From: Nemertoderma westbladi
Lineage: Eukaryota > Animalia > Xenacoelomorpha
Assembly: GCA_032718475.1 (NCBI GenBank)
Contig: JAUCBJ010002263.1
Span: 28,565 to 92,564 of the forward strand
Length of the DNA: 64,000 nucleotides
Reading direction: 5' to 3'
Made by a program: the position numbers and the translations under genes. The notes below the pieces were generated by a model. It ran no database searches, was not told the DNA's origin, and worked only from the letters and a program-made list of their open reading frames with translations. Below, in pieces: positions 11,500 through 38,391 of this stretch. The first letter of the stretch is position 1; each line of letters opens with the position of its first letter.

Positions 11500-14400
11500 C
11501 TATTTACTAATATTGGGTGGAGATTTGTAGTCTCCTGTCTCGTTTCTAGTCTCCTCAAGGAGCACGAGACGTTGTACAGGTCTGTCTACAGTACGTCCGT
11601 CGATAGTCCTTACAGTAACTGTCCTCACTACACCAGATGTAGGGTGCGTGGTCAAAATGACTCCAGTCAGCCAAAACCGTCTTTTCAGATTGGCTTCAGC
11701 CAATAAAACATGGTCACCACGTCTTAAACATCGGGTATTGAGATACCAAGAGGTTCTGGTCGAAATAGAGGGCAAATAATATTTCTGCCATATTTCCCAG
11801 AATTTATTTGCAAGCAATTGAGTGGTTTTCCAAGCTTTGTTGCCGTATCCGTCGCTATCAACGGGTACCGAAAAGGGCAACAATGTCGTCGGCGCCTGCA
11901 TAAGCAGGTGCGCTGGTGTCAAGGCAAACAGTGCGTCGTTATTGTCTGGGATCAAAGCGATCGGTCTAGTGTTCAAAATCGCTTCGATTTCTATTAACAA
12001 CGTCGTCAGTTGGTCGTCTGTCAGTATGTGTTGCGTCGGTACGACTTTAGCCATAGCTGTCTTAATTGAGCCAATCAGTCTTTCCCAAACGCCGCCTCTC
12101 CACGGACTGTCTGGAGTGTTGAAATACCAAACAATACGGTGAGGATGTAGTTCCTCGGAAATCTGGTTTGGTCCAACTTTCTCAAAGCTCTGGTTATCTC
12201 GTTCCGTGCACCCACAAAGTTTGTCCCTTGGTCGCAGTAAATGGATTTGACCAATCCACGTCTAGCGATAAATCGCCGTAAGGCTAGAATAAAGGCATTG
12301 GTGGTCCAATCTGTCACTCGCTCTATATGGACAGCTCTGCTGGCCATGCAAGTGAAGATCAATCCCCAACGTTTTACCTGTACCATTCCGCGTTTCGCGA
12401 TTATGGGTCCAAAACAGTCTATCCCTGTCTCAGTGAAAGGGGGTCTAAATGCCTGTAATCTTGCTAGTGGTAGTTCACTCATTTCTTGGTGTCCTATCCT
12501 CGCGTGCACCTTCTTACAAATCATACAGTTCCGTGTTACCGAACTCAGTGCCTTACTAGGTCTAATCAGTACAAACCTCGAGCGTAAGTGTGATAGACAG
12601 TGGTGTCTACCCACGTGTTTGAGTTGTACATGTGCGTCCAGTATCATAGCGCGCTGTAATTCATGGTGTTGCGGTATGATGATAGGATACCTAAAGTCTA
12701 GTGCAAAGTCGATGTTTTGGAGTCTGGACTTGTGACAAAGTAAGCCCCGGTAAATAATCGGACTCCAACTCAAAATCGGTGAAGACTTAATCTGTTTACC
12801 TTGGTTGATCGCTGTGAACTCTCGTGCGAAATATCGCAATTGATAATGTCTAATGATATCAACTTCACAATGGCCAACTTCCTTTAAGGTAAGTCTTCTA
12901 GGAAAGTCGCGTTTGCCTCTGGCATATTGTCTCAAACGTTTGAGCCATGCTAACTTGCGGCACGCGTCAGTCCATGATCTAGTTAGGTTTACTATCCGGT
13001 CAACGTAAGTGTTAGTGACGTCATCAGGTAAGGTATAGTCGTATTGTGGATACTTGTCTGGACTTGGTAGGCCCACGGGCCTTCTGGTAGGTTTGTCTGA
13101 GTCCCCAAGTACGTCAATCTTTACGGTCTTACCTTTACCGTCCGCACCTAATGTGTCGACTGGCAGTAACGGTTTCAACTCTACAGTGTCAGTGTGTTCC
13201 TGTGAGCCTGTAAGCTTCCTAACCTTAGTCACACGTTTACCTGTAGGTGGTAAGTCAAGTACCTTCTTTGAGCGGAGTGTGATCGCTGTGGCCACACCTT
13301 TGTCGTCCAAAGAAGTCAAATTCGGTAAGTCTCTAAATTTCCGCTCCAATGGGTCTTCTAGTGGAGTGTCTAGTAGACAGTCTGGTGAAGCGTCCGGTGA
13401 ACAGTCTGGTGAGACGTCTGGTGAGGCATAGCGCGGAACTTCCAGCGAAATGTCTTGTCGTCGGTCCCAAGGTCTGTCTGGCGTAACTTCTAGCAGAAAG
13501 TCTGGTCCAAAGTCTGGTGGACAGTCTGTCGAGATGTCTGGTGGAAAGTCTGGTGAGACGTCTGGTAGACATTCTGTCGAGAGTTCCATCAAACAGTCTG
13601 GCGAACAATCCGGAGAACAATCTGGTGTCACTTCTGGTGAATAATCTGGCGAGTAATCTGGTGAACAATCCGGCGAAACGTCTGGTGAAATCTCCCGCGG
13701 AACATCCGGCGAAAGATTCGTACAAGCGTCTGGTCGAGTGTCTGGTGAGACGTCTGGCATAATGTCAGGTCTGGCGTCCAGGTCATCAGATTTCGTCCGT
13801 CCTTGTTTCCTCTTGACCTTGGCGTTGGCTTTCGCTTTGGACTTGACAACCTTGTCGATTTTTATCTCGGCACCCTCTGGTATGGTGTTGGTTGTCGCGT
13901 CGAATAACGGTGGCCATTCGTCTGATGGTCGCTGTAGGAACTCGGGTCCTCTAAACCAAAAGGATTTATTGTCCGGTTTACAAAAGTCAAGCGGTTGCAT
14001 CCCCCGTGACGCGATGTCAGCTGGGTTCAGCTTCCCTGGACAGTGACGCCAATCTTGTTTGAGCGACCGGTCTAATATTTCAGCCCGTCTGTTGGCTACG
14101 AAAGTCTTGAACTCAAATGCTTCGTTGTTTATGTACCAAAGTACCAACGTCGCATCCGTCCAATATGTGACCTTTAAGTTAGCCTCCAGCTCGCGTTGAA
14201 CTAGACTGACAATATCGGTGGATATCGTCCCGGCTCGCAGCTCCCCACAAGGTACAGTCATATACTTCAATGGCATTGTTCTAGCTCTTGAAGTAACGAG
14301 AGACACTTCGTAGCTGTCCGATGTCACTTGTCGTCTAAGGTACAAAGTAACCCCCAATCCATCCTTGCTAGCGTCACTAAAGCTGTGAAGCTCTAAATCG

Positions 14401-17400
14401 GCTGGAAAGGTGGTTTGCAAAGGAAAGTATACCCTCGGTATGGTATAGTCTTGTAGGAAAGTCAGTTGGGCTTCCCAGTCCCTCCATCGCTCAGCTAACT
14501 TTTCTGGGATGGGATCGTCCCATTCCAATCCGGCTTGCCAAATGCTGCGGAGTATGATCCTAGCATGTAGGATCACTGGACTAATGAAACACAATGGGTC
14601 ATACAATCGACTCATGGTCGATAAGCAAGTCCTCTTAGTGAGAGGTCTAGTCTGGTCGTTGGACCTTACACGTACCCTAAAATTGTCGGTGTTAGGGTCC
14701 CAAATAAGTCCTAATACTTTGGTCGTCGGCAGAGGTTCTAGGTCTAAGTCTAAGTCACCTCCGCTGCGATCCGTCGGGTCAAATGAGTTCACCAGTTTGG
14801 GTTCGTTGGAAGCGAACTTCGTCAGGTGGAATCCGCCCTCAGCGAGACAATCTTGGAGTTGGTGTGCTACGGTTGTAACGCGCTCCAAGGTGTCACAACT
14901 CTTGAGGCCGTCATCCACGTAGAAATCTCGTTCCACTGTCCGAACTACTTCTGGGTCAAATTGGTCTCGTCTGTCCAATGCGGTCTGCTTTAAGGCGTAC
15001 ATGGTGCAGTTGGGGCTGTCCCTGGCTCCGAAGACTCTTACCTGCATTTGGTAAGTTTCTGGCGGAAGTTCTAAATTTCCGTCCGGATACCAAAGAAACC
15101 TCAAGCTGTCCCTGTCCCGCTCCAAAGCCTTAACCTGGTGAAACATGGCCTCTACGTCACAGGTGAAAGCCACTTTGCGTTGTCTAAAACGCATTAGGAC
15201 TCCCATGAGGTAATTGTTCATATTCGGCCCGTCCATCAGTTCGCTGTTCATAGACATCCCTTGGTAAAGCGCGGCGCAGTCGTTGACTACACGCACCTTG
15301 CCAGGTTTGTCCGGGTGTCGAACAAAATGATGTGGCAGGTAATATGTCTGGTCTGTGGTTACCTCGGGATTTAACATCCTAATGGCGTATCCCCTTTGGA
15401 GATACGTCTGAAGTTGTGCATTGTATTGCATATGGGCCGTCTCGTCTCGCAACAATCGCTGCCTTATTGATTTGAGTCGCCTCAAAGCAAGCGGGTAATT
15501 GTTAACGAGTTTAGGTTGTCCATTGCGCCACAACATACCAACCTCATAGTGGCCATTCGCGGTCTGGCGAATGGTATCTCTCATAATATTTAATGACCGT
15601 TTTTCCTGTTCTGAAATAGCGGTCTCGTAACTACCGGGTTCTGCTGAGTCCTGTTCCAACCATTGAATGGTCCGTTCAGTCAGCAGTCGGTCTAGCGCTG
15701 CTTGCACTGCGCCATGGTCCTCGTGCACGTCTTCGTCCGCTGCGGTGGCTAGTGTCAATGCGTCTGGTAGGCTCGCAAGCCTTCCGGTGTCACTCGTCGG
15801 CGTCGAATCGTCGTGCGGCGGTTTGACAACTTCTTGATCTATCGGTAGGCTTGCAAGCCTTCCAAGATCAACGACCGGTGTCGAAGCCTGGTGGGTGGGG
15901 TCAATGACCTTTGGATTTTTCGGTAGGCTCGCAAGCCTTCCAAAATCCTCGTTCATCGAGTCATCCACAGCAACAACCCTTTGGTCTTCGGTAGTCAATA
16001 CAACCTGGTTTACTGCAAGTAGTTGTAAGTCAGAGGTCCATGTGGTCGTGTCCAGATCAGTTACGTCAGTATCGGTGGCGTCTGCGTTAGCGACACAAGT
16101 CTGTCGTAGTGCCGTCCGTACAATTGGACCACGGGAGTGTGAAGGAGAGTTATCTATCGTAGTAGTCAATAAACTACATGTACTCAAAACATCGTCCTCC
16201 TGGTCACTTACCTCTAGTGAACGTATTGGTGCTCTAGTATACCAACCTATGGGAGTTCTACATGCGTAGGGGTTGCCCGCTGTAATAACAGATGGGCGTG
16301 TCTCCCATACCTGATGTAAGTTAAACTGGTCTGTCCCAATTAACATCGCAATGGAACGATAATTAACAGGACATTCTGGTATTCCAAGGTGTCGGAAATA
16401 CTTACGATCTTCCGGTGATTGCTCTGGCACAGGGCCGAGCAAGTTACTAAAGTCCTTCGTAGCTGCAAAGGTCAAATTTCTTACCGGAAGTAACGAGCGC
16501 TCCTCCTTGCTGTGTTCCGCTTTGGAAAGAAGAGTGTCTAAGGTTAGTTTTACTCTTGTCACAGGAATCGCTCGCTTACCATGCATGCTGCTTACAGTGT
16601 ACTGAGCAGTCTTACCTTTACTCATGTCCGTAACCACGTCGGCTACTTGTTCGTCGACATAACTGTGTGATGACGTAGAGTCTAAGATAGCGTATATACG
16701 CTTGCTCCCTCGGGTTCCGGTAATCTTTATAGGAATCACGCTAAACCCTTTCAATTGGTTCTGTGTGAGGAGCGTTACCGATGGTTGTTCCTCACCTGCA
16801 TGCACGTAGAAAGTGACGTCTTCCTCCTCGTCCTCGTCCGATCATCCTGACTGATCCATACAGTCCGTGTAAAATGTACGGATCTCGCGCGGCGCACGCT
16901 CTTTATATAATGTGTCGCATCTAGCCGCTTTATCTGGATGCTCTCGTCGAAAGCGTCTGGTCGGAGTATGACTAGTTGTGTGAAGCAACGCGTCATGGTT
17001 ACGTCCACATAGAGGACATGTATCGTCGCTCGGGCAATCCTTCCGGACGTGTCCTGGTTTCGTACATCTCCAGCAGGAATCTAACGATCGAATTTGGAGT
17101 CTCCTTTCTTCGATCCCTAACTCCTTAAAAGCGCGACATCCACGAAGTTTATGTCCGCTTTGGTTTCTGCCGTTCCGCTCGCAGTATGAGCATCCCACAA
17201 AGTCCGCCGGCAACTGTTGTCGAGGCTGCGTGGTGCCGATAGGCGTCAGAACTTTAGAAGTCTCAGTAGGGGTGGCGTAGGTAACGGCTTTCGCGTTCGT
17301 CGGAAATGGTTTAGTCCGATTCGGCGCAGAAATAGCTATCCCTTCTGCCGCGATATGGTGATCAGTATAATTCGATCGGGTCTCGATCACGGCCTCCCGC

Positions 17401-20348
17401 GAAATCAGTTGATAGACGTTGGTAAGTTTTAATAACCCTCCGGCCTCTTCACGCTGGTACTCGATGCGTTGCCATTCTCGTCGGAGTCGATGATGAAGTC
17501 GACCGATTATCCTGATGAGAACCGTCGGTGCGTTAGCATACTCGAGTTGTCCAATGGACCGTAAAGTCCCTATAGCATTCTTGATTTCGTCCGCGAGTCG
17601 TAGAAGATCGATCGGTTTCGAAATGCTGCCTCCTCTACAGAGGTCTTCGATAATGGATTTAGCCATGGCGACATTACCTCCGTAAATCGAATATAAACGG
17701 TCGTACGCTAACTCAAAGGCATCAGGAACACCAATAAAGGTTTCCGCTAATCGTTTCGGCTCACCAGACAGGACTAGGAGCAAGTAATTAAACTTCTCCG
17801 TCGAGGTGAAAGCACACTTAGCGATCTGGGACTCTACGTAGTCTACCATTGTGCGCCAGTGTTTCGCGTTGCCAGAGAACTTTGGCGGTTGCTGTGCCGG
17901 TAATCCGTGTCTAGCCGCGAATTTCGCAATCTCGCTAACCAAATCCAACTGTCCGCGTCCCTGTTCGGTGGCGTCGTCCAGTCGCTCCCTTCCGCGTGTT
18001 GTTCGTCGGTAGGAATTATTAACGGGATCTTCTTCTCGATGTGTCGGAGTCTGTCTAGTCTCCTGTTCTCGCCTTGGTAGTCAATGTTGTCTAGGTTGTT
18101 CTAACTCCATGCTGGTTCGTGATCGATCCGACGGTTGCGCTTCGAGTCGATCTTCGAGTTGAGCTAGTCGGTCCGTCATCTCGGTGAACTGTTTGGCGCT
18201 GATCGTTTCCGGTGGTTTCAACGTGGGTTTCTGCAAAGGTGTTTCTCGTGGAGGATTCTCGATGTAGGGGTTTGTCGATCGTTCCTCCCGTTTGTAATCC
18301 GCTGTCTCTGCCGCTCCAGTACGGAATATTTCCCGTTCCGTTGACTCCGAGTCACTGGATGAGTCGCTTTCGTCCGGATAAGGTGGCTGGCGGTTTCGCG
18401 TTCAGCGTATTACTTTTGGTCTCGTTCGCTGAGGTCTAGAGTCTACGGTTCTCCGTCGTTCGGTAGGCTCGCAAGCCTTCCACGAAGTCGTAGGTCTCGT
18501 TATACGTTGTTCGATCCCGTGGGTACTACCCACATCCATCCTCCTCCGTAGTTCGGTAGGCTCGCAAGCCTTCCACAAAGTCGTAGGTTGCGTCGAACAT
18601 TGTGTCAAAGGTCGAGTGAAATAGTCGGGTTTCGTAGTCGGTCTATAAATAACTGGGTTCGCACAGCACATCACAGGTTTAACTTGTAATGGTTTACTCA
18701 CCTGTTTAATTGTCATAAACGCAGGTTCCTCTCTTCCTACAAGTAGACTACGACTTACTGTAGGTGGACTAGTTATGTTACCTGCTAAAATTGGCGATGA
18801 AGTTGCCCTAGGTTGCAGTATTTCCGTCACAACAAACCTGTTGCCTTGCGTCGAACGCACAGGCGTTATTTCCATAGGTTTCGTAACAAAGACCGGTTTT
18901 ATCGAAGTCGTGGGTTTGAGCATAGGAATAACTTGGGGAAAACGTTTACAGTAATCCTCGACGAACTCCTCTCCTCGATCTATCGCTTCCACACTTCCTT
19001 CCTCGATTTGCTTCTGAATTCCGTGATATCGAGCTTCCATGCGATCCAGGGCAGACAAGTCGTGTCCAGCTCGCGATCTTATAGATCTATCTCTCGCGTC
19101 GAGTTCAAGGTCCGCTTGCGCGTTCGCTGCCTCGCGCGAACTACGATTCAGCTCGAACTGTAGTTGCATCTCCCTTTCGCATCGATCCGCTACTTGTTGT
19201 TGTGCCGCTAACTCCGCTTCCTGTATAGCTAAACGAGTGTTTATTTGTCGCGCCTCCAACTTGGCGCGAGCATCGGATGCTGCTTTCTTCCGTGCTAATT
19301 CGTCGGCTGCCGCCGCCGCGGCTGCTTCTTGCGCTAAGTCTTCCTCCAGTCTTCTCATCTCTGAGGATTCTAATTCGGCTTGCGCCTTGAGTTGCGCAAT
19401 TCTCGCCTCATCCTCTCTATATTGTTTCTCTCCCTCGATGGCGATCTGTGCCATCCTCTGTTGCGTTTCTTCCTCGACGACTTGTTGTCGGCGTGCAACC
19501 TCCTGTTGTTGTCGAGTAATTACAGACGCTGTTCTACTAACGTCGCCAACGTCGCCAACATCTCTCCGTACACTAACAAACGATCTATCCAGTGGTGGAA
19601 TTTGGTAGGCTCGCGAGCCTTCCGTAGTAAGAACTTCCGTCGTCCCTCGCGGTTCGACTTCCGGTTCTTCGATTGGTACGCCGCATCTACGAAGAAAATT
19701 GGTGAGCGTCTCTAACCTCCCGTCCAGGCAGTAGAGTTCTTCTTCCTCTTCGGGTTGTAACACCGCGTCCGAAACTGACTCACCTAGCAGTTGGTCGAAC
19801 TGCTCCTGTTGAGCCAATCTTATCACCGACTTAAACTGAATAAGGCTTTCTCTCGCACTTACCAACTTGTCTATTATCTTTACCTGAGTAAAGTTATCGC
19901 CACGCAACTCTGCAAGTTCGTGTAAACCTTTAAGTTTATCTACGGAGGCATGTACCCTACCTTCTATCCTTACCTGTAAGGTGTAGAACTCGTATCTCGA
20001 CATCGGGGCGGTTAACTTGCGTAAAACGCGAAAACCTTCTCCGAGGTTCCGGGTAATCTGGGCCATGTGTCCTCCTATACTCCTAATAACGTTCTCCTGG
20101 CTTCCAGTCGAACTTACCATGTCTGGTTCCCGTGATCTGGTCTGCGGGATGGTAAGGAAATCTTCAATTCTGCCGTCGCCAAGCGTTGCAGCTTCCGGTA
20201 TTTCCGTTCGGGGTACCGGCGACGCATGCGGTGTGACATCGGTGGAATCTCGGGTTCTCCTTCTCGGTTCGTCTACTGTCGATCTGTCCTGGTCGCACGA
20301 GTCATAGTCGGTAGGTGGGTATCGAGTCGAATGGGGTGTGTCACTCAT
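11500..20348 (-). pseudogene. BEL/Pao gag-pol polyprotein of element 1 (3 in-frame stops, frameshift in integrase near 12160)
   Basis: Coiled-coil N-terminus; Gag PKFSG..EKFNYL; CCHC knuckles; protease AILDSTSSHSY; RT FYVDD; Pao RNase H HSFSDAS; IN H..H..CMIC, GIDCFGP, YCDQGTNF, E.ILNTRP. ORF pieces 18402-20348, 16842-17948 and 12075-16805 share one frame. Confidence 0.93.
13370..13770. repeat. 12-bp coding repeat (xSPD tetrapeptide) in RNase H-integrase linker
   Basis: TCTGGTGARACG-like units; protein SPDVSPDCSPDYSPDY. Confidence 0.85.
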
Positions 20349-21772
20349 GTCTTATTATATACGTCAAGTACGGGTAATAAAATGTCAAAGTATCTGAATG
20401 TTGAAATGTTAAACTTACCTTGGTATATATAGTATATATATACCCTAACCGGTACAAATAAATCAACAAAGTCAGAATGTCGAAATGTCGAAATTTCCAA
20501 ATGTCAAACTTACCTTGATATATATATATATCTTATATATACCCTAACCGGTACAAATAAAACTAACAAAGTATATAATAAAATAAGTAATAATCTAGCC
20601 TACCGGCTAAATTTGTACGAATAAATGAGATAACGGTATACGTTACCAAAATGTAGATCAACAAGTTCAAATAATAGGCAAAACAGCAACGTCTAACGGG
20701 AAAATAAGTACCAACAACACTACTAATAGACAGTGAAACCCACAAATTTTGAGTACTACTGTGCTTTCTTAAGTTTGAACGACACGAGTCGTAAAACTTA
20801 CGCTCCTTTGATCTTCCAGTCGTGCAAATTCCCAAATACAAACCGGACGTGGGTCGTTCCGTTTTTCGGCGGCGCGGACGAATTTTTTGTCTCCCAACAT
20901 TGCGAAAAGCGGTCTAATCCTCGAAGCGGTCCAGAAATGAGTCCTTGAGTCCTGAAAAGTCGAAGGTGAGAGTTTTACTTCTACGCTACGAAAATTCTTC
21001 CTAGGTACTGATACAACTTGGTCTTTAAACCCTATGTACCTTTTCAAGTACCGAAAAGTAACACCGCACACACACGGCGTAAAACAAAGTGCTACAAACT
21101 AACTATTAGCTAGTCAAATATTAAATGCAAAAGTTCTAGCTACCCTAAAAGCCTACTGAAGCAGGGGACATTCTACAAATTACTAAATTTACTAACCTTA
21201 AATTTTTAAATATCTCCTACTTTCAATAGCTAACAGTATGTGAGAGACCTCACGGTTGGGATCAATACTATACGCTAATTTGTATAATATATACCTCACT
21301 GTTGTGTCCTCTACGGTAGGGACTACCCTACAGCCTACAAATCTACCAATACGAAGCTATAGAATATCTCTATCCATAAAGTCCAGTAGCATACCGCTTA
21401 CCAGATCCTAGTAACGATGTATCTTACTATGAGACTCTAGTAATGAAACGGGCTCGTACAGTATCTGACAACAAATCCCAGTCCAGGATATCTAAACAAA
21501 CAGATACAATACACAAACTACTACTGGCGAGGAGCAGAGCCTGGTGTCTATTCTATGTACGTGGGCGGGTCTAATGCCTACGTACTAGACAAAAGGATAC
21601 CTGTCCTCTAACCGGTATGGCAGATGTACAGTTACAGTAACAGACCAAACTCACGGGAAAACAATCCCCGCGCAGCGAATCCTAACTATCGCTGACAGTC
21701 CTAAATACAGTAACTTGCCGCGGTGTGATTTATATGGTTTATATACGAGCTAGGTGGGTTACGGCCCTAGCG

Positions 21773-21946
21773 TAACAATAACTGATCCCCCTGTCTGAAT
21801 CAGCCTAAAAGGTCGTGCCTAAATGTAACAATAACTGATCTCCCTGCACGAAATCAGTCTAAAAGGTCGTGCCTAAATGTAACAATAACTGATCCCCCTG
21901 TACGAAATCAGTCTAAAAAGTCAGGCCTAAATGTAACAATAACTGC
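21773..21946. repeat. ~56-bp tandem repeat (3-4 copies) inside element 1 LTR
   Basis: GTAACAATAACTGATC...AAAAGGTCGTGCCTAAAT recurs. Confidence 0.8.
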
Positions 21947-23124
21947 TGCGCAGAAAACAACAGTTTAATAACGAAAATGAAATGCTCCCTCTTGCCGTAA
22001 CTAAATATCTGATCCTAATTTACAAATACAGATAATTTCTGCCTAAAGTAATCTAAAGTGCGCTATAACTAGTAGAAACTCTAAGGGTAGATATGTTTTA
22101 GGGCGTGTGTGTGTGGGTGTGTTACAAATAAAACAATTTTGGTGTATCCTTTCACTAGGTTTTAGTAATTCTCTGACCGAAATAATACCGTGCGCTAGCT
22201 ACTAAAATAAACTAGTCGCGTTTTGTTGAACTTTATACTAACAAATGACGTCAAAGCTCTCTCCTTCCTATCCACAACTCAAATGGGCAACCACGGTGTT
22301 AATAACTACACCCGTGATCGGCACAAATACCAGATTCTGGTTGTAAGATAAGAAATAGGGATTAATTGCTACCGTACGTTAGCTGATCTGGTATACGAAT
22401 TTGATTCTAGAACTTTGTTGCCGCGGTAGTTAGCAGCAATACCTATCAGTACGTGGCAAGGCGCGGTAGGATATTAATAAAAACCTCCCTAGGCCAAGCG
22501 GTGTGCCGGTAGCAGAAATGCTCCTTGCCTGATCAAATAACCAACTTCAGGCAGGGGGGGGGGGGGGGTACTAATGTATGCTCTACAAAGCGAACCGGTA
22601 CCAAACGGTCAGTACTGCGAATCACTAAATTATGGAAACATATGCTGTCTGTACCTAATATGTACTCGCGTACTGACGGACGGCAATAATTCGCTTCTAC
22701 CTACTTACCTGTGAGGTATACAGGTAACCCAGGGGTTCGCAGGACTGGCAAAGGGGGAGGGGGGGGTTTTCTGCCTAAAATGTAGTTATTTGATCCTAAA
22801 TTTGCGGCGTCCCAGGACGACGTCATGCTTACCCTGATCTATAGGTCTTACGGCGGGCAAGGGCTTCAAACAAAGTCTTACCTTCCTCATAAAGCGGGCG
22901 CTGCATGGCAAGTGGAGCATTTCGAAGGGCGAAGGGGTGTGCGGTCCAAGTTAAAGTGGGCGCTAGCGTGTTGTGGACATCTTTTCCCTGCGTTGCTGAC
23001 GGCCTAACGGTCTAGGCGGTCATCTTCCCGATGTTTGGCTGTCCCAAAGTTGGACCAAAGAAAAACATGTTCAGGAGTTTACAAATATATTTACAGTTTA
23101 CGAAGTTAATTGTGATTGTACAAG

Positions 23125-23292
23125 TAGTGATAACCGAAGGCAAACCAGCCCTTTATATACTAAATCTGGGACATAGAATTCGCTAGAACCTCCTAGAATA
23201 TTCGATGGCCTCACATTGGAGCAATAAGATATTCCATGCCTTATGATTGGCCTAACTCATCCTTCGATACGTTGTACGCACCTCATTGGCTT
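23125..23292 (-). promoter_or_regulatory. Pol II promoter in element 1 LTR: CCAAT boxes, heat-shock element, TATA
   Basis: Minus-strand TATATAAA at 23152-23159; nGAAn/nTTCn array at 23175-23204; three ATTGG upstream; TCACTACTT initiator-like shared with element 2. Confidence 0.6.
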
Positions 23293-23334
23293 ACCAATTT
23301 GTACCAAATGAAAATAAATGGCCCCAAAATACAA

Positions 23335-23410
23335 ATTTCCCGACCAAGATTCGAACTCGTAACCTATGTAATGCAACCAACGCCTTAACCATCTGACCAC
23401 TACGCCACGA
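23335..23410 (-). ncRNA. tRNA-derived Pol III A/B-box unit in U3 of element 1 5' LTR
   Basis: Copy of 440-515. Confidence 0.6.
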
Positions 23411-23544
23411 GAGTAACTAGGGGTTTTATGTATACAAATATGAATAGGCATATTACATTACTGTAACTTAATCAACATGCGTCGGATTTTCGAAAGTTTT
23501 TACGTTATACTACAAATGCTATTCTATAGTGAAATAATTCATCA

Positions 23545-23624
23545 CGCGAGATTAATTATTTTCTCGCGAGTTTAATCATTTATCTCGCGAGATTAATTAT
23601 TTTCGCGCGAGTTTAATCATTTAT
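23545..23624. repeat. 80-bp remnant (4 units) of the TCTCGCGAG satellite between the two BEL elements
   Basis: Same 20/21-bp units as 40280-46106. Confidence 0.95.
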
Positions 23625-23751
23625 TATAGAATCATATTCCCTAAATGCCGTGGATTTTCAAAATTTTATTTTATTCGAATTAACTTTGTTAAAGATTACA
23701 TTAAGTCCTCATTTGTATTTGCTATATCTATTGTACGATGTTTAGTCAAGT

Positions 23752-23838
23752 GGTTCAGTAGCTCAGTCGGTAGAGCGTTGGAAATTATATATGTAGTAGG
23801 TATTGAGTTCGAATCCTTGTAGGTGCGAATTATTTTTT
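23752..23838 (+). ncRNA. tRNA-derived Pol III unit in U3 of element 2 5' LTR
   Basis: TAGCTCAGTCGGTAGAGCG (A box, perfect GCTC/GAGC D stem) at 23759; GAGTTCGAATCC (B box) at 23805; T6 terminator at 23833-23838. Confidence 0.65.
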
Positions 23839-23904
23839 GTACAGAATTTCAACTCATTTAAATTGACCGCTACAAATTAAATTGCATTTGTCTGTACCTA
23901 GATT

Positions 23905-24085
23905 AACCAATGGGACTGTAGTTATTAGATTGTAACCAATGTCGTGCAAGTTATATATTAGCTGGACCAATAGCTATCTTTAAAAACCTGTTAGAACCTA
24001 TAGAACAATCGAGAATTTTCTCGATTGATTGCAGCACAAATTTGCTATATAAAGGTGCGATTTCGTTCATTAGTTCACTACTTCT
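23905..24085 (+). promoter_or_regulatory. Pol II promoter in element 2 LTR: three CCAAT, heat-shock element, TATA, initiator
   Basis: CCAAT x3; aGAAc aATCg aGAAt tTTCt at 24002-24021; TATATAAA at 24046-24053; TCACTACTT about 30 nt later. Confidence 0.65.
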
Positions 24086-26329
24086 TTCTTACACAATATT
24101 ATTTCAGATTACATTGTTTATTGTATAATAGTTATTGTTTGATTTTGTAATAAAAGTTAGAAATACTTGTCACATCTGCCCTTTTCTATCTGTTTTATCA
24201 TGCTTCACCACGGTGAACCCAACTAAGGGACAGGATGGCTGGCTAGACTTCGGGCCGCAGCAATGAACGGGAACATCAAGGGAATGTAGACAGGAGACAA
24301 CCCGCAATATCAATCTTAGTTATTCGCCCATCGCCTGAAAGGTTAGACAGCATTCGATGCCTTGCTACCTAAGTGTAAGACCAAAGATCAAAGGTAGAGG
24401 TAGTGACACGCTGTACGCCTAAAATTACATCTAGGGACTGTACTGTCTTAATTCAGGAAAAAACCGCAGTAGACCTTCATATTCCTACGGGAGGAGAGAG
24501 GAGAGCAGGCAGAGATACTACTACGCAGATAGGACGTAGGCACACCGGTACAAGGCATACACATTGGTAGGGTGCAGCAAACTGTACGCCTAACTCTTGC
24601 TAAGTACAGGTGCGTTTGCGACTATTTGTAGTACAACGGTGTCCATTGCATTAGAACTTGTAGGCCAGGAGGGTTACTGTGTTTCACCTGAATTAGGATT
24701 GTACCGTTCAGGCGGTAGGGCAGTTTACGACTAGGCGCAAATAAATTGAGGCTATTAGGGATATACTAACATCTACCGTGTCCCCGCCGACATCCTGATA
24801 GGAAGTTACCAAGCCCACCTAGGTAACCAAAATTCTAGATAGGACGCCAGGCTAGCTATTAGTAACAGTACGCCTACTGTAGTAAACTAACACATTTCTT
24901 CTTAGTATTAGGGACCTGGTAAATTAAAATTGCCGAATTCTGGGCGTAGTATTAACCTTATGCCTGAATTTGAGTCCTGGAAATACGCAAGAGGGGAAGG
25001 AGCCTTATTATTCGTGAGTATTGGACCTACAAGTTACAAAATTAGAATATTCGTAAAATGCACACCGTACCCAGTAATTATATATATGAAGGAGCAAAAC
25101 TGATCTTGATGGTTCAGAATTAACACACGCGAGTTAGAAATTATTTACACCTCAAAATATATAAAATTAACTTTTGTCCGTACTGCACTTTGCCCGCTAG
25201 TTAGACATCTCCAAATCTCTGCACCTAGCTAGCGTCTCTTTCGCCCAACCATATAAATCACACCGCGGCAAAGTATACGAGCCCCTTAGTCCGTCAGTGA
25301 GTCAGCCTGATTTTAGGATTCGCTGCGCGGGATTTTGTTTTATCGAAGTTTGTCTGCTCGTAGACTGTTTTCTGCCTCACCGGTTATAAGGGACCAATAC
25401 TGCAATATATTCGCTTACTTGGAGTTTACTATTTTGGTGAGAAGGTCGGATTTATGATTTGATTCACAAACTTTACAGTAAGATATTGCAGGTATTGTTA
25501 ATGTCTCTTCGCATTAGTAGGAATATGTTTTACTGAACTACGGTTCGGTAGGACTAAAGTTATTTGAAAATTTTGTATTTTGAGGTAAAAATTTATATTT
25601 GATTAGCTAAGTGCTAATTTTTTGAAATAAAATTTGATTTGAACCGCGTGTAAAATATTTTGGAATTGAATACCGGTGTTTAAAAGGGTTTAAATACCAT
25701 ATTGTACCGGTACAAAAAATTTTCGTAAAAGTAAAACCTAACTCTTTTGTTTTTCAGGATTCAGAACTCATTTCTAGACTGTAACGGGAGCAAGACCGTG
25801 TTTAGCAAGTTTGGGAGATAGATAACTCAACAACTTTGGTTGGGAAAATCGCACTTCATCCGCAACGCTGGAAACGGAAAGGTTCACGTCCGGTTTGTAT
25901 CTGGGAATCTGTTTTTCTGGAGAATTATTGGAGTGGGTGAGTTCAAAAAGTTGCATAAATAAGTTAGGCATTACCGTATTAGTTAAAATTATTGTGGGTT
26001 CCACTGTCTCAAGTATTTATGCATTCTGTATGATTTCTTTGTTCATTGCTGAATTAGTCCGTATTATTGTATTTAATTTACCTTTTTGATAACGCATATC
26101 GTTATCCAATTTATTTGTTATAAAATTGGCCGCTAGGCTAATTTTATTATATACTTATTCCGTGACATTTATTTGCTGTAAAATTGGCCGTTCAGGCTAA
26201 TTTTATCCATCTGCTATAAAATCGGCCGGTAGGCTAATTTTATATGACTGTAATTAATACCGTTTAGATATAAATACGGTAAATTTGATACTTTGACACT
26301 CACATTTTACTTGACTTACAACTACCGAA

Positions 26330-29300
26330 ATGAGTGACAAACAAGACTATACGAAGAATACACCTACCGACTATGACTCATGTGACGTGGATAAGTCAGC
26401 AGCGGAAGAACTACAGGGGAAGACTCGCGAGCCTACCGAACCTACACCGTGTGCGTCACCAGTACATCCAACGGGAGTACCGGATGCCGTAGTACGAGGC
26501 GACGGCAGGACCGAGGACTTTCTAACTGTTCCGCAACCTAGATACAGGGAAACGGACATGGTAAGTTCAGTAGGAAGCCAGGAGAGTGTGGTTAGAAGCG
26601 TCGGAGGCTACATGGCGCATATTACCAGGAGTATTGGAGAAGGCCAACGCATATTAGACGAGTTGACCGCTCCGATGTCTCGGTTTGAGTTCTACACCCT
26701 CCAGGTTAGAGTACAAAGTAGAGTACATAAGTCCGTAGATAACCTTATCAGTCTACAAGATCTAGCTAGACAGAGACAGGATATGGATACTCAACTTAGA
26801 ATCCTCGAGAAGTTAACGATCGCTAGAGAGAAACTGATTCAGTTTAAGTCGACGATTAGGCAGATACAACAGGAACAAGCGGACCAGTTGTTAGGTGAGT
26901 CAGTTTCGGACGAGTTATTGCAACCCGAGGAAGAACAGGAACTGTATAGGCTGGATGGACAATTGAAACACCTGACGGATCACTTACGCATGTGCGGCGA
27001 GGATGTCGGAGATTGGGAAACCGTGCCGGAGGCTACGAGGGAAACTTCACTCGCACAAATCGAACTAGTACCAGGAATACTAAGTCAATCGTTGGTAAGT
27101 ATTCGTAGCGAAATTGGCGAGGGAAGTATGGTCACGTCAGAAGTTGCTCGACAACAGCAACAGTTCTACAGACAGCAACACGAAATGGAAGAACAAACTC
27201 AACTGCTAATAATACAAGCAGCGGTAGAGGAAGAGAAACTACGCGTTGCAAACGTTGCGAGAATCTCTCATCTGCAAGAACAAGCCGAGTTGGAAGCAGC
27301 TGAGATGGAAAAGTTGGAGCTAGAAATAGCACAGCGAACAGTGGCAGCTGAGTTAGCGCAACAAGCGGCAGCAGCTGAGTTGGAACGACAAGCAGCAGCA
27401 GCGGAGTCGGAGCGACAAGCAGCAGCAGCCGATTTAGAGCGACGAGCAGCAGCAGCCGATTTAGAGCGACGAGCAGCAGCAGCTGAGTTAGAGCGACAAG
27501 CGGCAGCGGCAGCGGCAGCGGCAGCGTCCGAGTTAGAGCGACAAAGGTTAGTTTCAGAAGCCAGAGTCGAGATGAAAAAACGGCAAATAAAGGCTCAATC
27601 AGCTATACGACAAGCGGAGTTCGAGGCGCAACAACAACAAACGGAACAACGAGAGAAGGAAGTTAAACTTCGTTTCGAACTCGAGAAGAAGGCGAGAGAA
27701 TTAGCCAACGCGAAGGAAGATCTGGATCTACAAGCCCGCGACCAATCGATGAGATCTCGAGACGGACATGATTTAGACCAGATGGAGGTAAGGCACCGCC
27801 AAATCCAGGAACGAATGAAGGAAGGTTCGATAGGAGCACCTGGACGGGAAAGACAATTGGTCAAAGACTTATGTCAAAGATTCCCTCAAGTAACTCCTAT
27901 GTTTGCACCAGTTACGACTAAGGAACCTGTTTCGATTGCGGGTAGTAGTAACATTTCTCCTATCCATGGTGCGACGGAACACAGGTTTGTTATTCCGGAC
28001 AAGTTTACACCGCCAAGAGCAACGTCATCGCCTATTCCGAAAGTCAAGGTAAGTAACCCACCGATTACAGATCGTAGTAGTTTGTTGACCGCACCTGCGC
28101 TACTGACGACAAAACAGGTGAGTCCACCTTTGACGCCAAAACCTGTCACGCACTACACGTACCCAATGACGTTTAGGCCTACAAGGCCTTTAGATTCAAA
28201 TGCTGTCATTCGACCACCGGTTCAGTTTACATCGCAATCTACGACTTCGAGGAAGACTTGTGAGCCTACCGAACAACGGAGACCAGTGGATACGCGACCG
28301 TTCAACCAGTTTACATCGCAATCTACGACTTTGAGGAAGACTTGTGAGCCTACCGAACAACGGAGAATAGTGGATACGCGACCGTTCAACCAGTTTACAT
28401 CGCAATCTACGACTTCGAGGAAGACTTGTGAGCCTACCGAACAACGGAGAATAGTGGATACGCGACCGTTCAACCAGTTTACATCGCAATCTACGACTTC
28501 GAGGAAGACTTACAAGCCTACCGAACAACGGAGACCAGTAGACGATGTTCCGAAACGGAATGTTAGGATTCGAACGACACAACGGACGCGAGCACGTCGA
28601 CCACCGTATCCAGGTGACAGTAGTACTTCAAGCGAGTCGGATTACCCGGAACGCGAGGTATTTAGAACAGGAGCGGCCGACGAATGTAAACGTGAGCGTT
28701 CAGACAATTCCTTTATCAATAATCCTCCACAAAATACACCAACACAGAAAGCGTTACAACCAACGGACGCAATTAGTACGCAACAACTCGCAGAAATAAT
28801 GCGCCCAGTTGTAGACAAGTTGGCCCAAATAGAGGAACGTTTAGAAGAAACTCAAACTGATAGTTCGTGAGGTAACGAGTTCGAACACTTTAGACACCCG
28901 AAGCAGCAAAGAAAACAACCCTCGAGAAACACTTCGTATCAAGGAAAAGCGCCAAGACGAGAGAACATCAACTCGATTGCCAACCAAGGACGCGAAACTT
29001 TGAACGTGGCCGAGGAGATAGCGAAATTCGCAGCGAGACAAGGTTTACCGGTACAACAACCACCGAAGTTTTCAGGTAACTCGAAACATTGGCACACCTT
29101 TGTGGACTACATCGAAACACAAATAGCAGCGTGCGCCTTTACATTGAGGGAGAAATTCAACTACCTGCTACAAACGCTGACGGGAGAACCGAAACGTCTA
29201 GCAGAAACCTTTGTCGGTGTACCAGATGCCTTCGAACTAGCGTATGATCGCTTAACTTCGATTTACGGAGGCACGGTGAGTATGGCTAAGTCAGTGATAG

Positions 29301-32300
29301 AAGAACTCTGTAAGGGGGGGGCTATAACAAAACCCGTTGACTTACTAAAACTAGCTGACGAGATTAAAAACGCCATTACTACACTACGCTCGATTGGACA
29401 ACTTGACTACGCGAACACTCCGACAGTTCTATTAAAAATAATAGGAAGATTACACCATCGACTTCGTCGGGAGTGGCGAAAGATAGAATATCAGCGAGAA
29501 GAGAGAGGCGGATTCTTGAAGTTGGAAGACGTCTACCTACTGATATCCAGAGAGGCAGTAGTCGAGACGCGTTCGAACTACACGGACCAACATATTGTGG
29601 CGGAAGGAATCACACTACCTTCATCGAACCGACAGAAACCCCAGACAACATCCACTAAGACGGCCACTTACGTTACGCCGACGGAAACCCGACGATCTTC
29701 AGACGGTAGTAAGGTGTCCGCGCCCATTGGCACCAAACAGATCCGACAACAACTAAGTACAGACTTTAGTGGTTGCCAATACTGCGAGCAGCTAGGCAAG
29801 CGGCACACTGGTCACAAACTAAGAGGTTGCCGGTTATTTCGCGAGTTAAACTCGGAAGAACGACGCCTGCAGATACGGCCATTAGATTCTTGTTGGCGGT
29901 GTACGCTACATGGACATGTCCGTAAGGACTGCCCAAATACGGACACCTGTCCTTCTTGTGGACGCAACCACGACGGCTTGCTACACACCGACAGTCATAC
30001 GCCGACAAAACGCTTCACAAGGGAACACCCGGAAGCTGCAGCAAGATGCAACACAGCATACAAGGGTCGAGAGTCGAAAACAACACCGACATTCGTGACA
30101 CACATTAGAGATTGTTTCTCGGAACAATCAGGATCGTCAGATGAAGAGTCGGAAGAAGACGACGTTTACTTTGATACTGGAGACGAACAACCATCGATTG
30201 CGCTCCTGACGCCTGATCAACTAAAGGGGTTTAGCATAATTCCCGTCAAGATTACTGGCACCAAAGGGAGCAAGAGGATCTACGCTATCCTGGATTCAGC
30301 CTCATCTCATAGCTCTGTGGATGAGAAAGTAGCTGATGTTGTCACGGATCTTAGACAAGGTAAGAACGTCAGTTACACCATAAGTAGTATGCATGGACAA
30401 CGTGCAATACCAGTAACACGAGTTAAGTTGAACTTAGACACTCTTCTTCCGAAATCGCAACATAGCGAAAAGGAGAGGTCTTTGTTACCCTTTAAGGATT
30501 TAACCTTTGCGGCCACAAAGGACTTTAGTAACCTACTAGGTCCTGTCCCAGAACAATCCTTGGAGGACCGTAAGTACATCAGACACCTTGGTGTACCTGA
30601 ATGTCCTGTCAATTATAGATCGGTAGCAATGCTGATCGGGACAGATCAATTCAACCTACATCAAGTGTGGGAAACCAGGCCATCGGCAGTCGTAGCGGGA
30701 AACGCATACGCCTGTAGAACGCCGATAGGGTGGTATACTCGAGCGCCTGTGCGCACACTGGATATAAGTGACGAGGAAGACGATATACAAAGTACATGTA
30801 GTTTATTAACTACAACTTCGACTCATTCCTTTTCACACGACGTAGACTATACTACACTACAGTCAAGTTCGACAAAACATGACACGACGTGTGTAGCTAG
30901 CATGATAAGTCACAAGGAGCAGCTAATCCACCAGGTGAGTTTAGAACTTGGGGAGAAGACGAGTCAGCCAGAGATTCCATCGACGACAGACGATAACGCC
31001 GGAAGGCTTGCGAGTCTACCTACACCAACAACCTCAACAATGCCCGTCGATATCGATGATGACGCGTTAAGAAATCATCAAGTGGAACAAGCTGCATTGG
31101 ACAAAGAATTAACGGAGAAGACTATCAGGTGGTTAGAACAAGATACAGCTGAACCTGGTAGCTACGAACCATGTATGTCGGAACAAGAGAAACAATCTTT
31201 GAAGATCATGGAAGATACTATCCGCCAGACGAAAGACGGACATTATGAGGTAGGGATGCTATGGCGTAACCAACATCCTAAACTCATAAATAACTATCCG
31301 CTAGCCTTAAGACGTCTACACTCAATACGACAACGTCTATTAAAGGACGAGAAAGCCCATCTGCAGTATAATACTCAGATGGAGACGTATTTGACCAAAG
31401 GATACGCTATCCGAATGACTAACCCAGAGATAGTGACTGACCAGACATACTACTTGCCACATCACTACGTGAGACACCCCGACAAACCAGACAAAGTATG
31501 TGTAGTCAATGACTGTGCGGCTCTGTTTGAGGGGATGTCCCTCAATAGCGAGTTGATGGATGGACCAAACATGAACAATTATCTTATGGGGGTGATTATG
31601 CGCTTCCGTCAGCGTCAAGTAGCCTTTACTTGTGACGTCGAAGCTATGTTTCACCAAGTGAGAGCGTTAGAGCAAGACAGAGACAATTTGAGGTTCCTCT
31701 GGTATCCGGAAGGAGACTTAAGTCTACCACCGGCGACTTACCAAATGCAAGTTCGCGTTTTCGGTGCCAGGGACAGCCCAAACTGTACGATGTATGCCCT
31801 AAAGCAAGCCGCTAGGGATCAGAAACATTTATATGACCCAGAGATAATTAAGATCGTAGAACGTGACTTTTACGTAGATGATGGTTTACAGAGTTGTGAC
31901 ACAGTAGAACGTGCTATAACAGTAGCACATCAATTACGGGACTGCTTAGCGGGCGGAGGTTTTAACCTCACCAAATTCGCCTCAAACAGTGCCGAATTGG
32001 TAAACTCATTCGGAACGACTGAGCGTGGAGGTGGTGACATTGACCTAGAGTTCGAACCACTACCGACGACCAAGGTGTTGGGGCTCTTTTGGGATCCAAA
32101 CACGGACAACTTTCGAGTGAAGGTGAGACTGGACAGTCAAGAAAACACACTGACAAAGAGATCCTGCTTGTCAAAATTGAGCCGATTGTTCGATCCATTA
32201 GGATTCATCAGTCCAATAATACTGCAAGCCAGAATTTATATGCGCAGTATTTGGAAGGATGGACTAACATGGGACGAGCCGATCTCATCAGACCAAGTGG

Positions 32301-35300
32301 ACTTATGGAAAACCTGGGAGGCAGAATTATCTTCGCTAGAGGATTATTCCATACCCAGAGTCTACTTTCCATTACAAACAACGTTTCCTGACAACTTGGA
32401 ATTACATTGTTTTTCCGACGCCAGTGACAACGGCTTTGGTGTGGCAGCGTACTTGCGCAGACAAGTAGACTCAGAAGAGTTCGATGTTTCGCTCATTACT
32501 TCTAAGGCAAAAACAATGCCTACTAAGTATATGACGACACCACGAGCTGAGCTACAAGCCGCAACCCTGTCAACCACAATCGTGAACCTTATACAGACTG
32601 AACTACAGTCAAGTTTACAGATATTTTATTGGACTGACGCGACGTTGGTTTTATTTTACATAAACAACGACACACTTGAATTCAAGACATTCGTAGCTAA
32701 CCGTCGCGCAGAAATTCTAGACCGTTCAATAAAAGAAGATTGGCGACATTGTCCCGGACCACAAAACCCAGCCGATATTGCGTCAAGAGGAATGATGCCT
32801 GAGGAATTCTGTAAACCAGAGAACAAAGAATTTTGGCAGCACGGACCACAGTTCTTGCAGGGATCAATACAACATTGGCCGCCACTATACGACAACAAGT
32901 CTAACACTATCCCTAAAGACGCGGAAATTAAAAAACCAAAGAAAGGGAAAGCAAAGAAAAGGACGGCGGCGAAACTTAAGAAAAAACCGAAGGCGAAATG
33001 GAAAGCGATAACTTCAAAGGTCAAGAACGGAAGACTTGCGAGCCTTTCTACACCAGACATATCGCCAGACGGTCAACCAGACACGTTACTAGACGGTCAA
33101 CCAGACACGTTACTAGACGGTCAACCAGACGTTTTGCCAGACATGTCACAAAATGTTCTACCAGACACTAGTGACATATTGACAAATAGTAAAGCCGCAG
33201 TTTCTCTATTGGAGCGGCCTTCTATTGACAAACAACCAGACGCGTTACTAGACGGTCAACCAGACGTTTTGCCAGACACGTCACTAGATATTTCGCCGGA
33301 TGTTCCGCGAAACATTTTACCAGACATGTCACAAAATGTTCTACCAGACACTAGTAACATATTGACAAATAGTAAAGCCGCAATTTCCCTATTGGAGCGG
33401 CCTTGTATTGACAAACTACCAAATTTGACACACTTGAGCAACAATAAGCACAGCGAAACCTCATGTATTACAGATGTGGGTAGTACCTACGCTAATGTAA
33501 ATACAGGTGTTACTTTGCGCTCAAGAGACATACCAAACTTGCAACCTATGGTGAGACCCGGGATTAATATCGGCAGAAAATAAAGTTTACCGAAACCCAC
33601 TGACCCCATAGAGTTCAAACCACCATTAACGATCGACTTACAAAGTACTGCCAATCAAGGTAAGAAACCAAAGAAGGACAAATTACTTGTAGACCCGGAC
33701 GGATCAACAGTCAACAAGGGAATACCTACCGGCGGACCCGTGGGCCCTTCTAGTAAATCAAAACCTTCAAAATTCTCCATTGACTTACCTGATGACGTCA
33801 CAAATACTTACGTCGACCGTATTGTAAACTTAACAGATTCTTGGACAAACGCGTGCCGAAAATTAGCGTGGATTGTACGTTTTGTACAATACGTTAAAGG
33901 CAAACGCGACTTTACACGTCGACTTACATTGACTGAGATTGACAGGTGTGAAAGTAAATTAATTCGCCATTACCAACTGCGATATTTCAAGCGCGAATTC
34001 ACATCTATAAGCCAAGGTCAACCAATCAAGTCGTCACCAATATTGAGTTGGAGTCCGATAATTTATAATGGCTTAATTTGTCATAAATCTCGGCTTCAAA
34101 ACATTGACTTTAACACAAACTTTAGATACCCAATAATAATACCGCAGCATCACGAACTACAACGTGCAATGATACTGGACGCACATTTACATCTGAAACA
34201 CGCTGGAAGACACCACTGTCTTTCCTACTTACGTACAAGATTTGTATTAATTAGACCCAGTAAAGCATTAAGTTCAGTGACACGTACGTGTATTATTTGT
34301 AAAAAGGTACATTCTAGAATAGGCACTCAAGAAATGAGTGAACTTCCACAAGCACGATTTCAAGCATTCAGACCACCTTTTACATAGACTGGAATTGATT
34401 GCTTTGGTCCCATACATACGAAACGTGGACGTATACTAGTAAAACGCTGGGGACTGATTTTCACATGTATGTCCAGTAGGGCAGTTCATATTGAACGTGT
34501 GATGGATCTTTCTACCAACGCGTTTATACTAGCACTGCGGCGATTTATCGCCAGACGCGGACTAGTGAAATGCTTGTACTCAGACCAAGGGACAAACTTT
34601 GTTGGTGCTCGAAATGAGATTGCTAGAGCCTTTAAGAAATTAGATCATGACCAAATCTCAAACGAACTACGTCCTTACAAGATTGTTTGGAAGTTTAATC
34701 CTCCAGATAGTCCATGGAGAGGCGGAGTCTGGGAGAGATTGATTAGATCTATAAAAACAGCCATGGCAAAAGTAATTCCAGTAAACCACATTTTGACAGA
34801 CGACCAACTGACAACACTGTTTGTTGAAATCGAGGCAATACTAAATACTAGACCAATAGTATTAGTACCCGATGACAAACAATCCCAGTTTGCTTTAACA
34901 CCAGCACACCTGCTTATGCAGGCACCGACTACTTTGACGCCGATTTCTATTCCAATAGAAGGTGATAGCTATGGTAGAAAAGCGTGGAAAATCACGCAAC
35001 TACTAGCTAACAAATTCTGGGAAATATGGTAAAACCATTATTTGCCCTCTATTTCTGCCAGAACAAACTGGTACAATAACACCCGCGCATTAAAGCCGGG
35101 AGATCACGTGCTGTTAGCAGAAGTGAATCTAAAAAGACGCTTCTGGATAACAGGTGTAATTTTAGCCACACATCCATCTATGGATGGAGTGACAAGAACT
35201 GTGACGGTACGGACAATTGACGGTCGTACAGTTGACAGACCGACTCAACGTCTCGTACTTCTTGAAGAGACTCGAAACGAGTCTGGAGACTACAAATCTC

Positions 35301-35320
35301 CAACAAATGTTAGTAAATAA
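26330..35320 (+). pseudogene. BEL/Pao gag-pol polyprotein of element 2 (~2997 codons in one frame, 4 nonsense codons)
   Basis: Stops ending at 28870, 33583, 34387 and 35032 are all in frame. Motifs AILDSASSHS, FYVDD, HCFSDAS, H..H..CIIC, GIDCFGP, YSDQGTNF, GGVWERL. Confidence 0.95.
28222..28540 (+). repeat. 84-bp coding tandem repeat (4 copies) in gag, each carrying the 20-nt hairpin motif
   Basis: QFTSQSTTSRKTCEPTEQRR.. x4; motif starts at 28251, 28335, 28419, 28503. Confidence 0.95.
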
Positions 35321-35982: not shown

Positions 35983-36219
35983 ATGGAGAAGGGGATACAA
36001 GGAGAGCCGAGATGGGGATATGATATCCAAGAGGAAGCAGCAGCGCCATTCGAACGATTTGGAGCTAAAGATTACACTATATTTGGAATAAAGGAATTAT
36101 CAGAAAGTACAGCGAAACTCGCAAACACTAAATATGACACGACGGTATCGTGGAGGTTACGAACGAATCACGGCAGACGCGTGCGCCTATCGGTCACCTT
36201 GGTGATGATTTCGAAGTAA
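35983..36219 (+). pseudogene. N-terminal remnant of accessory ORF-A, cut by internal deletion
   Basis: Homology to 5672-6313 ends near 36150. Confidence 0.65.
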
Positions 36220-38374: not shown

Positions 38375-38391
38375 CTGTTTTCATGGAGCGG
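38375..38391 (+). other. Plus-strand primer site (PPT position) of element 2
   Basis: CTGTTTTCATGGAGCGG abuts the 3' LTR; identical in element 1. Confidence 0.7.

Follow-up and report, generated by a model that had tools for sequence, protein, structure and literature searches.

What is a promoter of RNA polymerase III (Pol III) type doing inside each long terminal repeat (LTR) of a retrotransposon that appears to have a Pol II promoter of its own? The question is raised by a 64-kb window, i.e., the whole stretch of DNA analyzed here (64,000 nucleotides), in which two related BEL/Pao LTR retrotransposons, elements A and B, lie head to head, 80 bp apart, inside a satellite of 20/21-bp units (Table 1). 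The first-pass annotation had described a tRNA-like Pol III cassette at a fixed position in the U3 region of both LTR families, with the A box about 135 to 145 nt inside the LTR. This description holds for all four LTR copies: A box, B box, and T-run are present in sense orientation, and the A boxes that had been quoted are found at LTR position 135 in element B and 146 in element A.

Table 1. Coordinates of the two elements, their Pol III-type units, predicted Pol II promoters, and surrounding satellite in the window
Feature	Position	Strand	Remarks
Element B, complete	23625-40279	+	16.7 kb
5' LTR, element B	23625-25516	+	1892 bp; termini TA...TA; 5-bp target duplication TTTAT
Predicted type-2 Pol III unit, U3 of 5' LTR, element B	23743-23838	+	about 90-105 nt if transcribed
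Three overlapping A boxes, element B 5' LTR	23743-23769	+	8-bp steps (23743, 23751, 23759); each 11/11 to TRGYNNARNNG
B box, element B 5' LTR	23806-23816	+	10/11 to GGTTCRANYCY
T6 run, predicted Pol III terminator, element B	23833-23838	+	
Predicted Pol II promoter, LTR B	23907-24081	+	CCAAT 23907, 23936, 23967; TATA 24046; initiator-like TCACTAC 24075
gag-pol region, element B (BEL/Pao)	26315-35320	+	in-frame stops at 28868, 33581, 34385, 35030
3' LTR, element B	38392-40279	+	1888 bp; purine-rich tract before it
Same-type unit, 3' LTR of element B	38509-38604	+	one substitution, 38546, outside boxes
Element A	from 23544 to past window start	-	over 23 kb
5' LTR, element A	21347-23544	-	start observed; end (about 21347) placed by likeness to LTR B
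Homologous unit, 5' LTR of element A	23326-23407	-	B box 23357-23347; T4 23329-23326
A boxes, element A 5' LTR	23407, 23399, 23391	-	11/11, 10/11, and 11/11, respectively
Predicted Pol II promoter, LTR A	23124-23289	-	CCAAT 23289, 23250, 23219; TATA 23159; TCACTAC 23130
gag-pol region, element A (BEL/Pao)	11500-20351	-	broken by stops and frame changes
Homologous unit, 3' LTR of element A	431-512	-	LTR cut by window start
20/21-bp satellite piece between elements A and B	23545-23624		80 bp
Main array of 20/21-bp satellite, flanking 3' LTR of element B	40280-46106		

The features that define the BEL/Pao class, i.e., a Pao-type gag-pol and paired LTRs with a short target duplication, were found, with element B complete and element A cut by the window. 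The LTRs of element B are 99.3% identical (9 substitutions and 2 indels), and those of element A differ at four positions over the 650 bp that can be compared, its 3' LTR being cut by the window start. LTR lengths range from 1.9 to 2.2 kb across the two elements, and a purine-rich tract shared by both precedes the 3' LTR. LTR elements usually have TG...CA termini; LTR B is bounded by TA at both ends, and LTR A begins with TG. The 5-bp target duplication of element B restores a satellite unit that is present in 80 copies in the array, whereas a 4-bp reading leads to a site with no occurrence at all. DUF1759 and Peptidase_A17 were detected in both elements and DUF5641 in element A, the reverse transcriptase (RT) motif is YVDD, and the Integrase_H2C2 match lies slightly below the cut-off in both. 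By these predicted domains, A and B are coding-type elements, the gag-pol of both copies carrying stops or frame changes. The two gag-pol regions are 56% identical in a long tblastn block and 59% identical in the Pol alignment. Their best database matches are BEL/Pao proteins, with 32 to 43% identity among the 120 matches listed, and the named ones among these relatives come from aquatic animals and one arachnid. Close relatives of the elements were found neither among viral contigs nor among prokaryotic genomes, and the 80 metagenome BEL loci kept of 501 are all distant (36 to 44% identity). An RT-RNaseH tree of 87 sequences was built from the loci and the first 30 proteins, keeping those with more than 400 residues covered and dropping duplicates; in this tree, A and B form a clade with a support of 1.0, at a distance of 0.42 substitutions/site and on a stem of 1.15, and the next sequence lies at a distance of 1.95.

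Some further features of the locus are recorded here. An extra open reading frame (ORF) with two CCHC knuckles follows pol in both elements (36138-37586, plus strand, in B; 1371-2990, minus strand, in A), and an atlas search with that of element B returned only CCHC leads below 0.9. Element A contains about 8 kb of further ORFs (2991-10622, minus strand) that show no Pfam match and no transmembrane stretch. The satellite (40279-46106) consists of alternating 20- and 21-bp units with a palindromic, CG-rich core; the Rfam matches in the window were weak matches of miRNA models to this palindromic satellite, all under the gathering score, and were rejected as false.

The unit in U3 was defined with a consensus from the literature as given in PMC12498455, requiring an exact A box (TRGYNNARNNG) and a B box (GGTTCRANYCY) with at most one mismatch, 30 to 60 nt apart. 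On both strands of the 64-kb window, only the four LTR copies match. Dinucleotide shuffles of the two LTRs contained an A+B match in 16 and 22 of 2,000 cases, and in 4 and 3 of 2,000 if the T-run was added. An initial pattern, loosened to admit element A, likewise matched only the four LTR copies (4 and 3 of 2,000 shuffles). The single mismatch in the B box of element B is an A at position 1, and the T-run starts 16 to 17 nt past the B box in both families. The unit had originally been placed at 23752-23838; this stretch does contain the quoted A box (23759), a B box (23806-23816), and a T6 run (23833-23838), but the unit of element B begins 9 nt earlier, at 23743.

In both families, the A box is not single: three A boxes overlap at 8-bp steps. 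This triple stack is present only in the four LTR copies of the window and was obtained in none of 2,000 U3 shuffles for element B and in 1 of 2,000 for element A, in a test that was designed after the pattern had been seen. Across the six A boxes, T, G, R, and the last G of the consensus are kept in all six and A in five, and the differences occur at R, Y, and N positions. The third A box of element A lies only 23 nt from the B box, compared with the usual 30 to 60. The A box that had been quoted for family A is an imperfect copy (10/11, at 23399) with perfect boxes 8 nt to either side, and the two D-arm types that the first-pass annotation had distinguished turned out to be an artefact of reading the third of three stacked boxes in B and the second in A. 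The D loop of a tRNA can by itself give rise to a second A-box-like word, and up to three are listed for certain small-RNA genes in PMC12498455.

The units of the two families are related by descent. When the first 1,600 nt of LTR A and LTR B were compared by blastn, the unit was the sole aligned block (66%, E = 0.01), and in a global alignment the U3 regions are collinear, albeit weakly, with the common order unit, three CCAAT boxes, TATA, and TCACTAC. The longest exact match between the two U3 regions is the B box (11 nt), followed by the TATA box (10 nt); one more match of 10 nt, an AT-rich word, lies off the diagonal. On these alignments, the predicted units of A and B are one unit inherited from a common ancestor and not two captured tRNA types, so that the earlier idea of two tRNA types converging on one position had to be given up. 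Since the U3 regions are homologous and the unit was inherited once, a single old insertion of a SINE or tRNA is its likely origin. Outside U3, the predicted U5 of LTR B measures about 1.3 kb, and blocks of 25 and 19 nt near 25247 and 25313 are identical between the families.

Conservation within family B was assessed using contigs of four (X1, X3, X4, and X6) out of seven public runs, none of which is recorded as RNA. X1 and X6 represent one sample, and three studies are covered in total. Alignment to positions 23625-24044 yielded 880 (X1), 333 (X3), 67 (X4), and 4 (X6) contigs with at least 80% likeness, and the share of contigs continuing into unlike sequence was 0, 0, 0.03, and 0.55, respectively. 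The first-pass annotation had named abundant free SINEs, together with absence of the unit from most LTRs, as the pattern that would speak against it; in the family B contigs of these four runs at this likeness, no joint skips the unit and abundant free SINE copies of it were not found. Other flanks are seen in a few low-depth contigs, namely two of X6, one of X3, and possibly the A-like one of X4 described below; these may represent subfamilies, genuine tRNA genes, or free copies of low frequency. Variants of at least 8% comprised 29 substitution and 6 indel rows, none of them in 23742-23790 or in the B box. Variable positions amount to 4 of 97 in the unit versus 20 of 127 in the linkers (Fisher p = 0.008), the latter count being inflated because the linkers are more AT-rich (GC 0.28 versus 0.375) and have a lower contig depth; three of the four variable unit positions are nearly fixed differences of the window's own copy. 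Conservation of the LTR start (2/56 variable) and of the CCAAT region (8/140) is similar to that of the unit. The summed X1 depth, in thousands, was 191 to 291 for the LTR start, 102 to 240 for the unit, 151 to 316 for the CCAAT region, and 16 to 46 for the two linkers; contig depth does not give copy number and was taken only as a sign of shared words, and contigs drop rare variants. Judged from these contigs, the unit of family B is a conserved island between variable linkers. Together with the B box as the longest exact U3 match, this supports the earlier claim that the boxes are under selection rather than left over from a chance insertion.

More distant copies indicate what is kept. Diverged X3 and X4 contigs possess a shorter spacer between A and B box, a D stem broken by changes in its 3' strand, and a B box altered at R, and in an A-like X4 contig the B-box region is unchanged and the spacer different. 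Copies of family A were aligned only coarsely; among the 15 joints listed of 54, none skips the unit. As far as these comparisons reach, it is the predicted promoter positions of the unit that are under selection, and not its base pairs or its spacer. Of the 80 distant BEL loci, 35 contain a long-range direct repeat, many of these being partial LTRs only. The initial A+B pattern was found in 0/80 and the published consensus in 3/80, none with stacked boxes and none inside the detected LTR repeat. As far as can be judged from its absence in these 80 loci, the unit is confined to this lineage, and since none of the LTR-like repeats among them carries it, BEL elements do not appear to need it generally.

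Downstream of the unit, both LTRs contain a predicted Pol II promoter of common layout, with CCAAT boxes about 30 bp apart and TCACTAC 29 bp past the TATA box. The B box is located 240 bp upstream of TATA in element B and 198 bp upstream in element A. One X4 contig joins 24339 to 25756 with GT..AG ends and a good donor, branch point, and acceptor; this joint suggests spliced Pol II transcripts and, hence, that X4 is RNA. The contig depth of X4 is 20- to 50-fold higher over U3, but this was rejected as evidence for small RNA or open chromatin, as contig depth cannot rank parts; it is also uninformative because the library is unrecorded and, if it is RNA, U3 is the 3' end of Pol II transcripts. 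An intron in the 5' leader is predicted in both elements (24342-25757, plus strand; about 22242-20952, minus strand) and would remove most of U5 and the primer-site region. The sequence context of the acceptor is conserved between the two elements, and one X4 contig was found for each element, the joint in A lying 6 to 7 nt off the predicted acceptor. In five of the distant BEL loci (L006, L014, L039, L054, and L067), a GTTCGAA- or GTTTGAA-like word, not TGG, occupies the expected primer site, possibly reflecting priming by an internal tRNA fragment.

The reading that we favor, and to which we assign about even chances, is that the unit may be a selected, tRNA-derived type-2 Pol III promoter that influences the Pol II promoter of the LTR in cis. 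Motifs, position, homology, conservation, and loss of the cloverleaf are observed in the sequence, and factor binding, transcription, and a barrier effect are inferred from them. Specifically, TFIIIC, TFIIIB, and Pol III would assemble on the unit, 200 to 240 bp upstream of the LTR TATA box, and the complex would keep the LTR promoter open against flanking heterochromatin and read-through from upstream, with a short unstructured RNA ending at the T-run as a by-product. As the A boxes and the terminator are kept, this is more probably a complete Pol III unit than a site binding TFIIIC only. The cis role is favored by analogy with yeasts: the centromeric tDNA barrier of fission yeast, as described in PMC2040200, depends on an intact A box and on the complete complex and works in either orientation, and Pol III complexes of budding yeast are reported to stop Pol II read-through and to affect neighboring Pol II starts (PMC4228148). 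In both elements, intact A and B boxes lie between repeat DNA and the predicted Pol II promoter. The satellite setting, too, is found for both, within one window, and it is an assumption that this satellite is heterochromatin. On the unit of the 3' LTR, the complex would stand in the way of Pol II transcription of the element itself, which might be costly. Conservation points to selection on the promoter and would look the same for a cis role and for an RNA product.

The unit may instead be a small-RNA gene whose Pol III RNA of 80 to 105 nt acts in trans, e.g., as a miRNA precursor or as a decoy for Dicer or Piwi; we consider this rather unlikely. The unit is complete including the terminator, and retention of the A boxes and the terminator is equally compatible with an RNA gene. 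Precedents are available from retroviruses: the Pol III miRNA promoters of bovine leukemia virus (BLV) have three overlapping A boxes, which are proposed in PMC12498455 to raise output, and the LTRs of simian foamy virus (SFV) encode Pol III miRNAs that depend on A and B boxes (PMC3993851). Either unit can be drawn as one long imperfect hairpin, but all six folds are no better than those of shuffled sequences (z = -1.49 to +0.64), and a joint fold of the A and B units, i.e., of two independent sequences, leaves only 10 weak pairs. The T-run does not lie at the base of a hairpin, and a stable pre-miRNA hairpin ending at the T-run is absent. The spacer between A and B box, which would be the site of a guide, differs between families and subfamilies, and no complementary stretch exceeds 11 nt to the element or 9 nt to the satellite, for which reason antisense targeting of either was discarded. 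As anticipated in the first-pass annotation, the cloverleaf is lost: ARAGORN found no tRNA gene in the window at its standard setting and called the unit of A only when the threshold was relaxed to a level at which the window yields 18 calls, and no Rfam tRNA match to the unit was obtained up to E = 10. Acceptor and anticodon stems in a cloverleaf, as expected of a functional tRNA gene, were not found. A functional or suppressor tRNA was likewise discarded, since the cloverleaf is absent and in-frame stops of all three kinds occur at differing places in A and B.

That the unit is a mere passenger, an old SINE or tRNA copy that entered the ancestral U3 and has been decaying along with it, is improbable. 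Loss of the cloverleaf and the weak collinearity of the entire U3 between the families would agree with such an origin, and according to Kojima 2024 (PMC10886601), a fair number of Repbase LTRs include a piece of a tRNA. The unit of A is bordered by an 8-nt direct repeat (48/2,000 shuffles, in a window chosen after looking), but there is none around that of B (444/2,000). Also speaking against decay are the boxes, which outlast spacer, stems, and flanks both between and within families, and the fixed positions of the A-box consensus, which are kept in five of the six copies. Still less probable is a role as an integration landing pad, by which the elements would target Pol III complexes and therefore insert beside their own kind. 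Integration targeted to Pol III is known for Ty3 and TRE5-A, and the insertion point of each element lies some 200 bp (218 and 199) upstream of the first A box of the other; however, this is a single case, and the satellite is also a common target of both elements. It is hardly credible that the genomic transcript is made from the Pol III promoter, or that this promoter provides the primer, as in Cassandra or as proposed for Helenus: despite the sense orientation in both LTRs and the lack of a canonical TGG primer site after LTR B, the T-runs 16 to 17 nt past the B box, element lengths of 16.7 and over 23 kb, and the CCAAT-TATA-initiator promoter conserved alongside in both make it implausible that the unit drives the element, the GT..AG joint in X4 indicates spliced Pol II transcripts, and self-priming was rejected, with best matches between unit and primer-site region of 8 nt (B) and 6 nt (A) that are not common to both.

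Pol III promoters in LTRs have been described before, and Cassandra, cited as the precedent in the first-pass annotation, is not the closest one. Cassandra and Ajax, which are 5S-derived TRIMs, share with elements A and B a Pol III promoter in the LTR, but theirs is of type 1 (5S), the elements are short and non-coding, and the Pol III transcript of Cassandra spans the element (PMC10886601). More similar are the Helenus (TRIMp3) elements, described by Kojima 2024 (PMC10886601) as non-coding TRIMs of 311 to 1263 bp with tRNA-derived boxes in their LTRs. As in A and B, tRNA-derived A and B boxes are conserved in both LTRs, a functional tRNA is missing, and a SINE insertion is the proposed origin. 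However, Helenus elements are believed to rely on Pol III for transcription and on Gypsy or Copia elements for mobilization, whereas A and B have gag-pol, a predicted Pol II promoter, far greater length, 1.9- to 2.2-kb LTRs, and a terminator directly past the B box; in animals, Helenus generates a 4-bp target duplication, compared with 5 bp for element B. A and B being Helenus TRIMs is ruled out by size, gag-pol content, and length of the target duplication. With Helenus and the Repbase LTRs containing partial tRNAs on record in that source, tRNA-like sequence in an LTR is not new in itself. The same study analyzed only tRNA-containing Repbase LTRs below 1 kb, and it expects autonomous partners to use Pol II and to be without such LTR sequence.

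The second group of close precedents is retroviral. The miRNA cassette in the SFV LTR (PMC3993851), the BLV miRNA cluster (PMC12498455), and the units of A and B all combine a type-2 Pol III unit and a terminator within a Pol II-driven retroelement, and BLV also resembles A and B in its three overlapping A-box-like motifs. In contrast to A and B, whose units are known from sequence alone and show no significant hairpin, SFV and BLV form stable hairpins and produce demonstrated miRNAs; moreover, the boxes of BLV, as presented in PMC12498455, are degenerate, with the B box located beyond the terminator, whereas the B box of A and B is inside. Regarding the cis-acting promoter that we favor, the tDNA and B-box barriers of fission yeast (PMC2040200) and the extra-transcriptional Pol III effects (PMC4228148) correspond to A and B in that intact A and B boxes separate repeat DNA from a Pol II promoter. 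The yeast barriers, however, are host loci, consist of real tRNA genes or B-box arrays, and have tested activity, whereas the unit of A and B is carried by a mobile element and is characterized at the nucleotide level only. In fission yeast, LTRs and tDNAs are linked as separate insulators (PMC4370569). Searches of the open-licence PMC and bioRxiv literature turned up no description of a coding BEL/Pao element with a conserved Pol III unit in its LTR.

Pol III promoters in LTRs have been reported from short non-coding TRIMs, in which they are thought to drive the element, and from a few retroviruses, in which they make miRNAs. A large coding retrotransposon with a conserved, predicted Pol III unit next to its Pol II promoter suggests a third use, namely self-insulation. 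If this is so, it would provide a compact, testable case of a transposon that stays expressed in heterochromatin and would link TRIMp3 elements to the retroviral Pol III cassettes. A broader proposal is only tentative: in a lineage of giant coding BEL/Pao elements, a tuned Pol III unit in U3 would be a heterochromatin barrier that the element takes along and that lets it stay active in satellite, and, given a B-box array in a Polinton-like element of the window, co-option of TFIIIC may be a strategy shared by mobile elements here. That element, recognized by matches to DNA polymerase B and A32 ATPase, contains a tandem array of 10 B-box/T-arm motifs at 56688-57365 (plus strand). A limited literature search on Polinton B-box arrays found nothing. 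The motifs of the array differ from one another mostly at R, N, and Y positions of the consensus and have no A box at a tRNA-like distance; in its predicted motifs, the array resembles a TFIIIC-only array.
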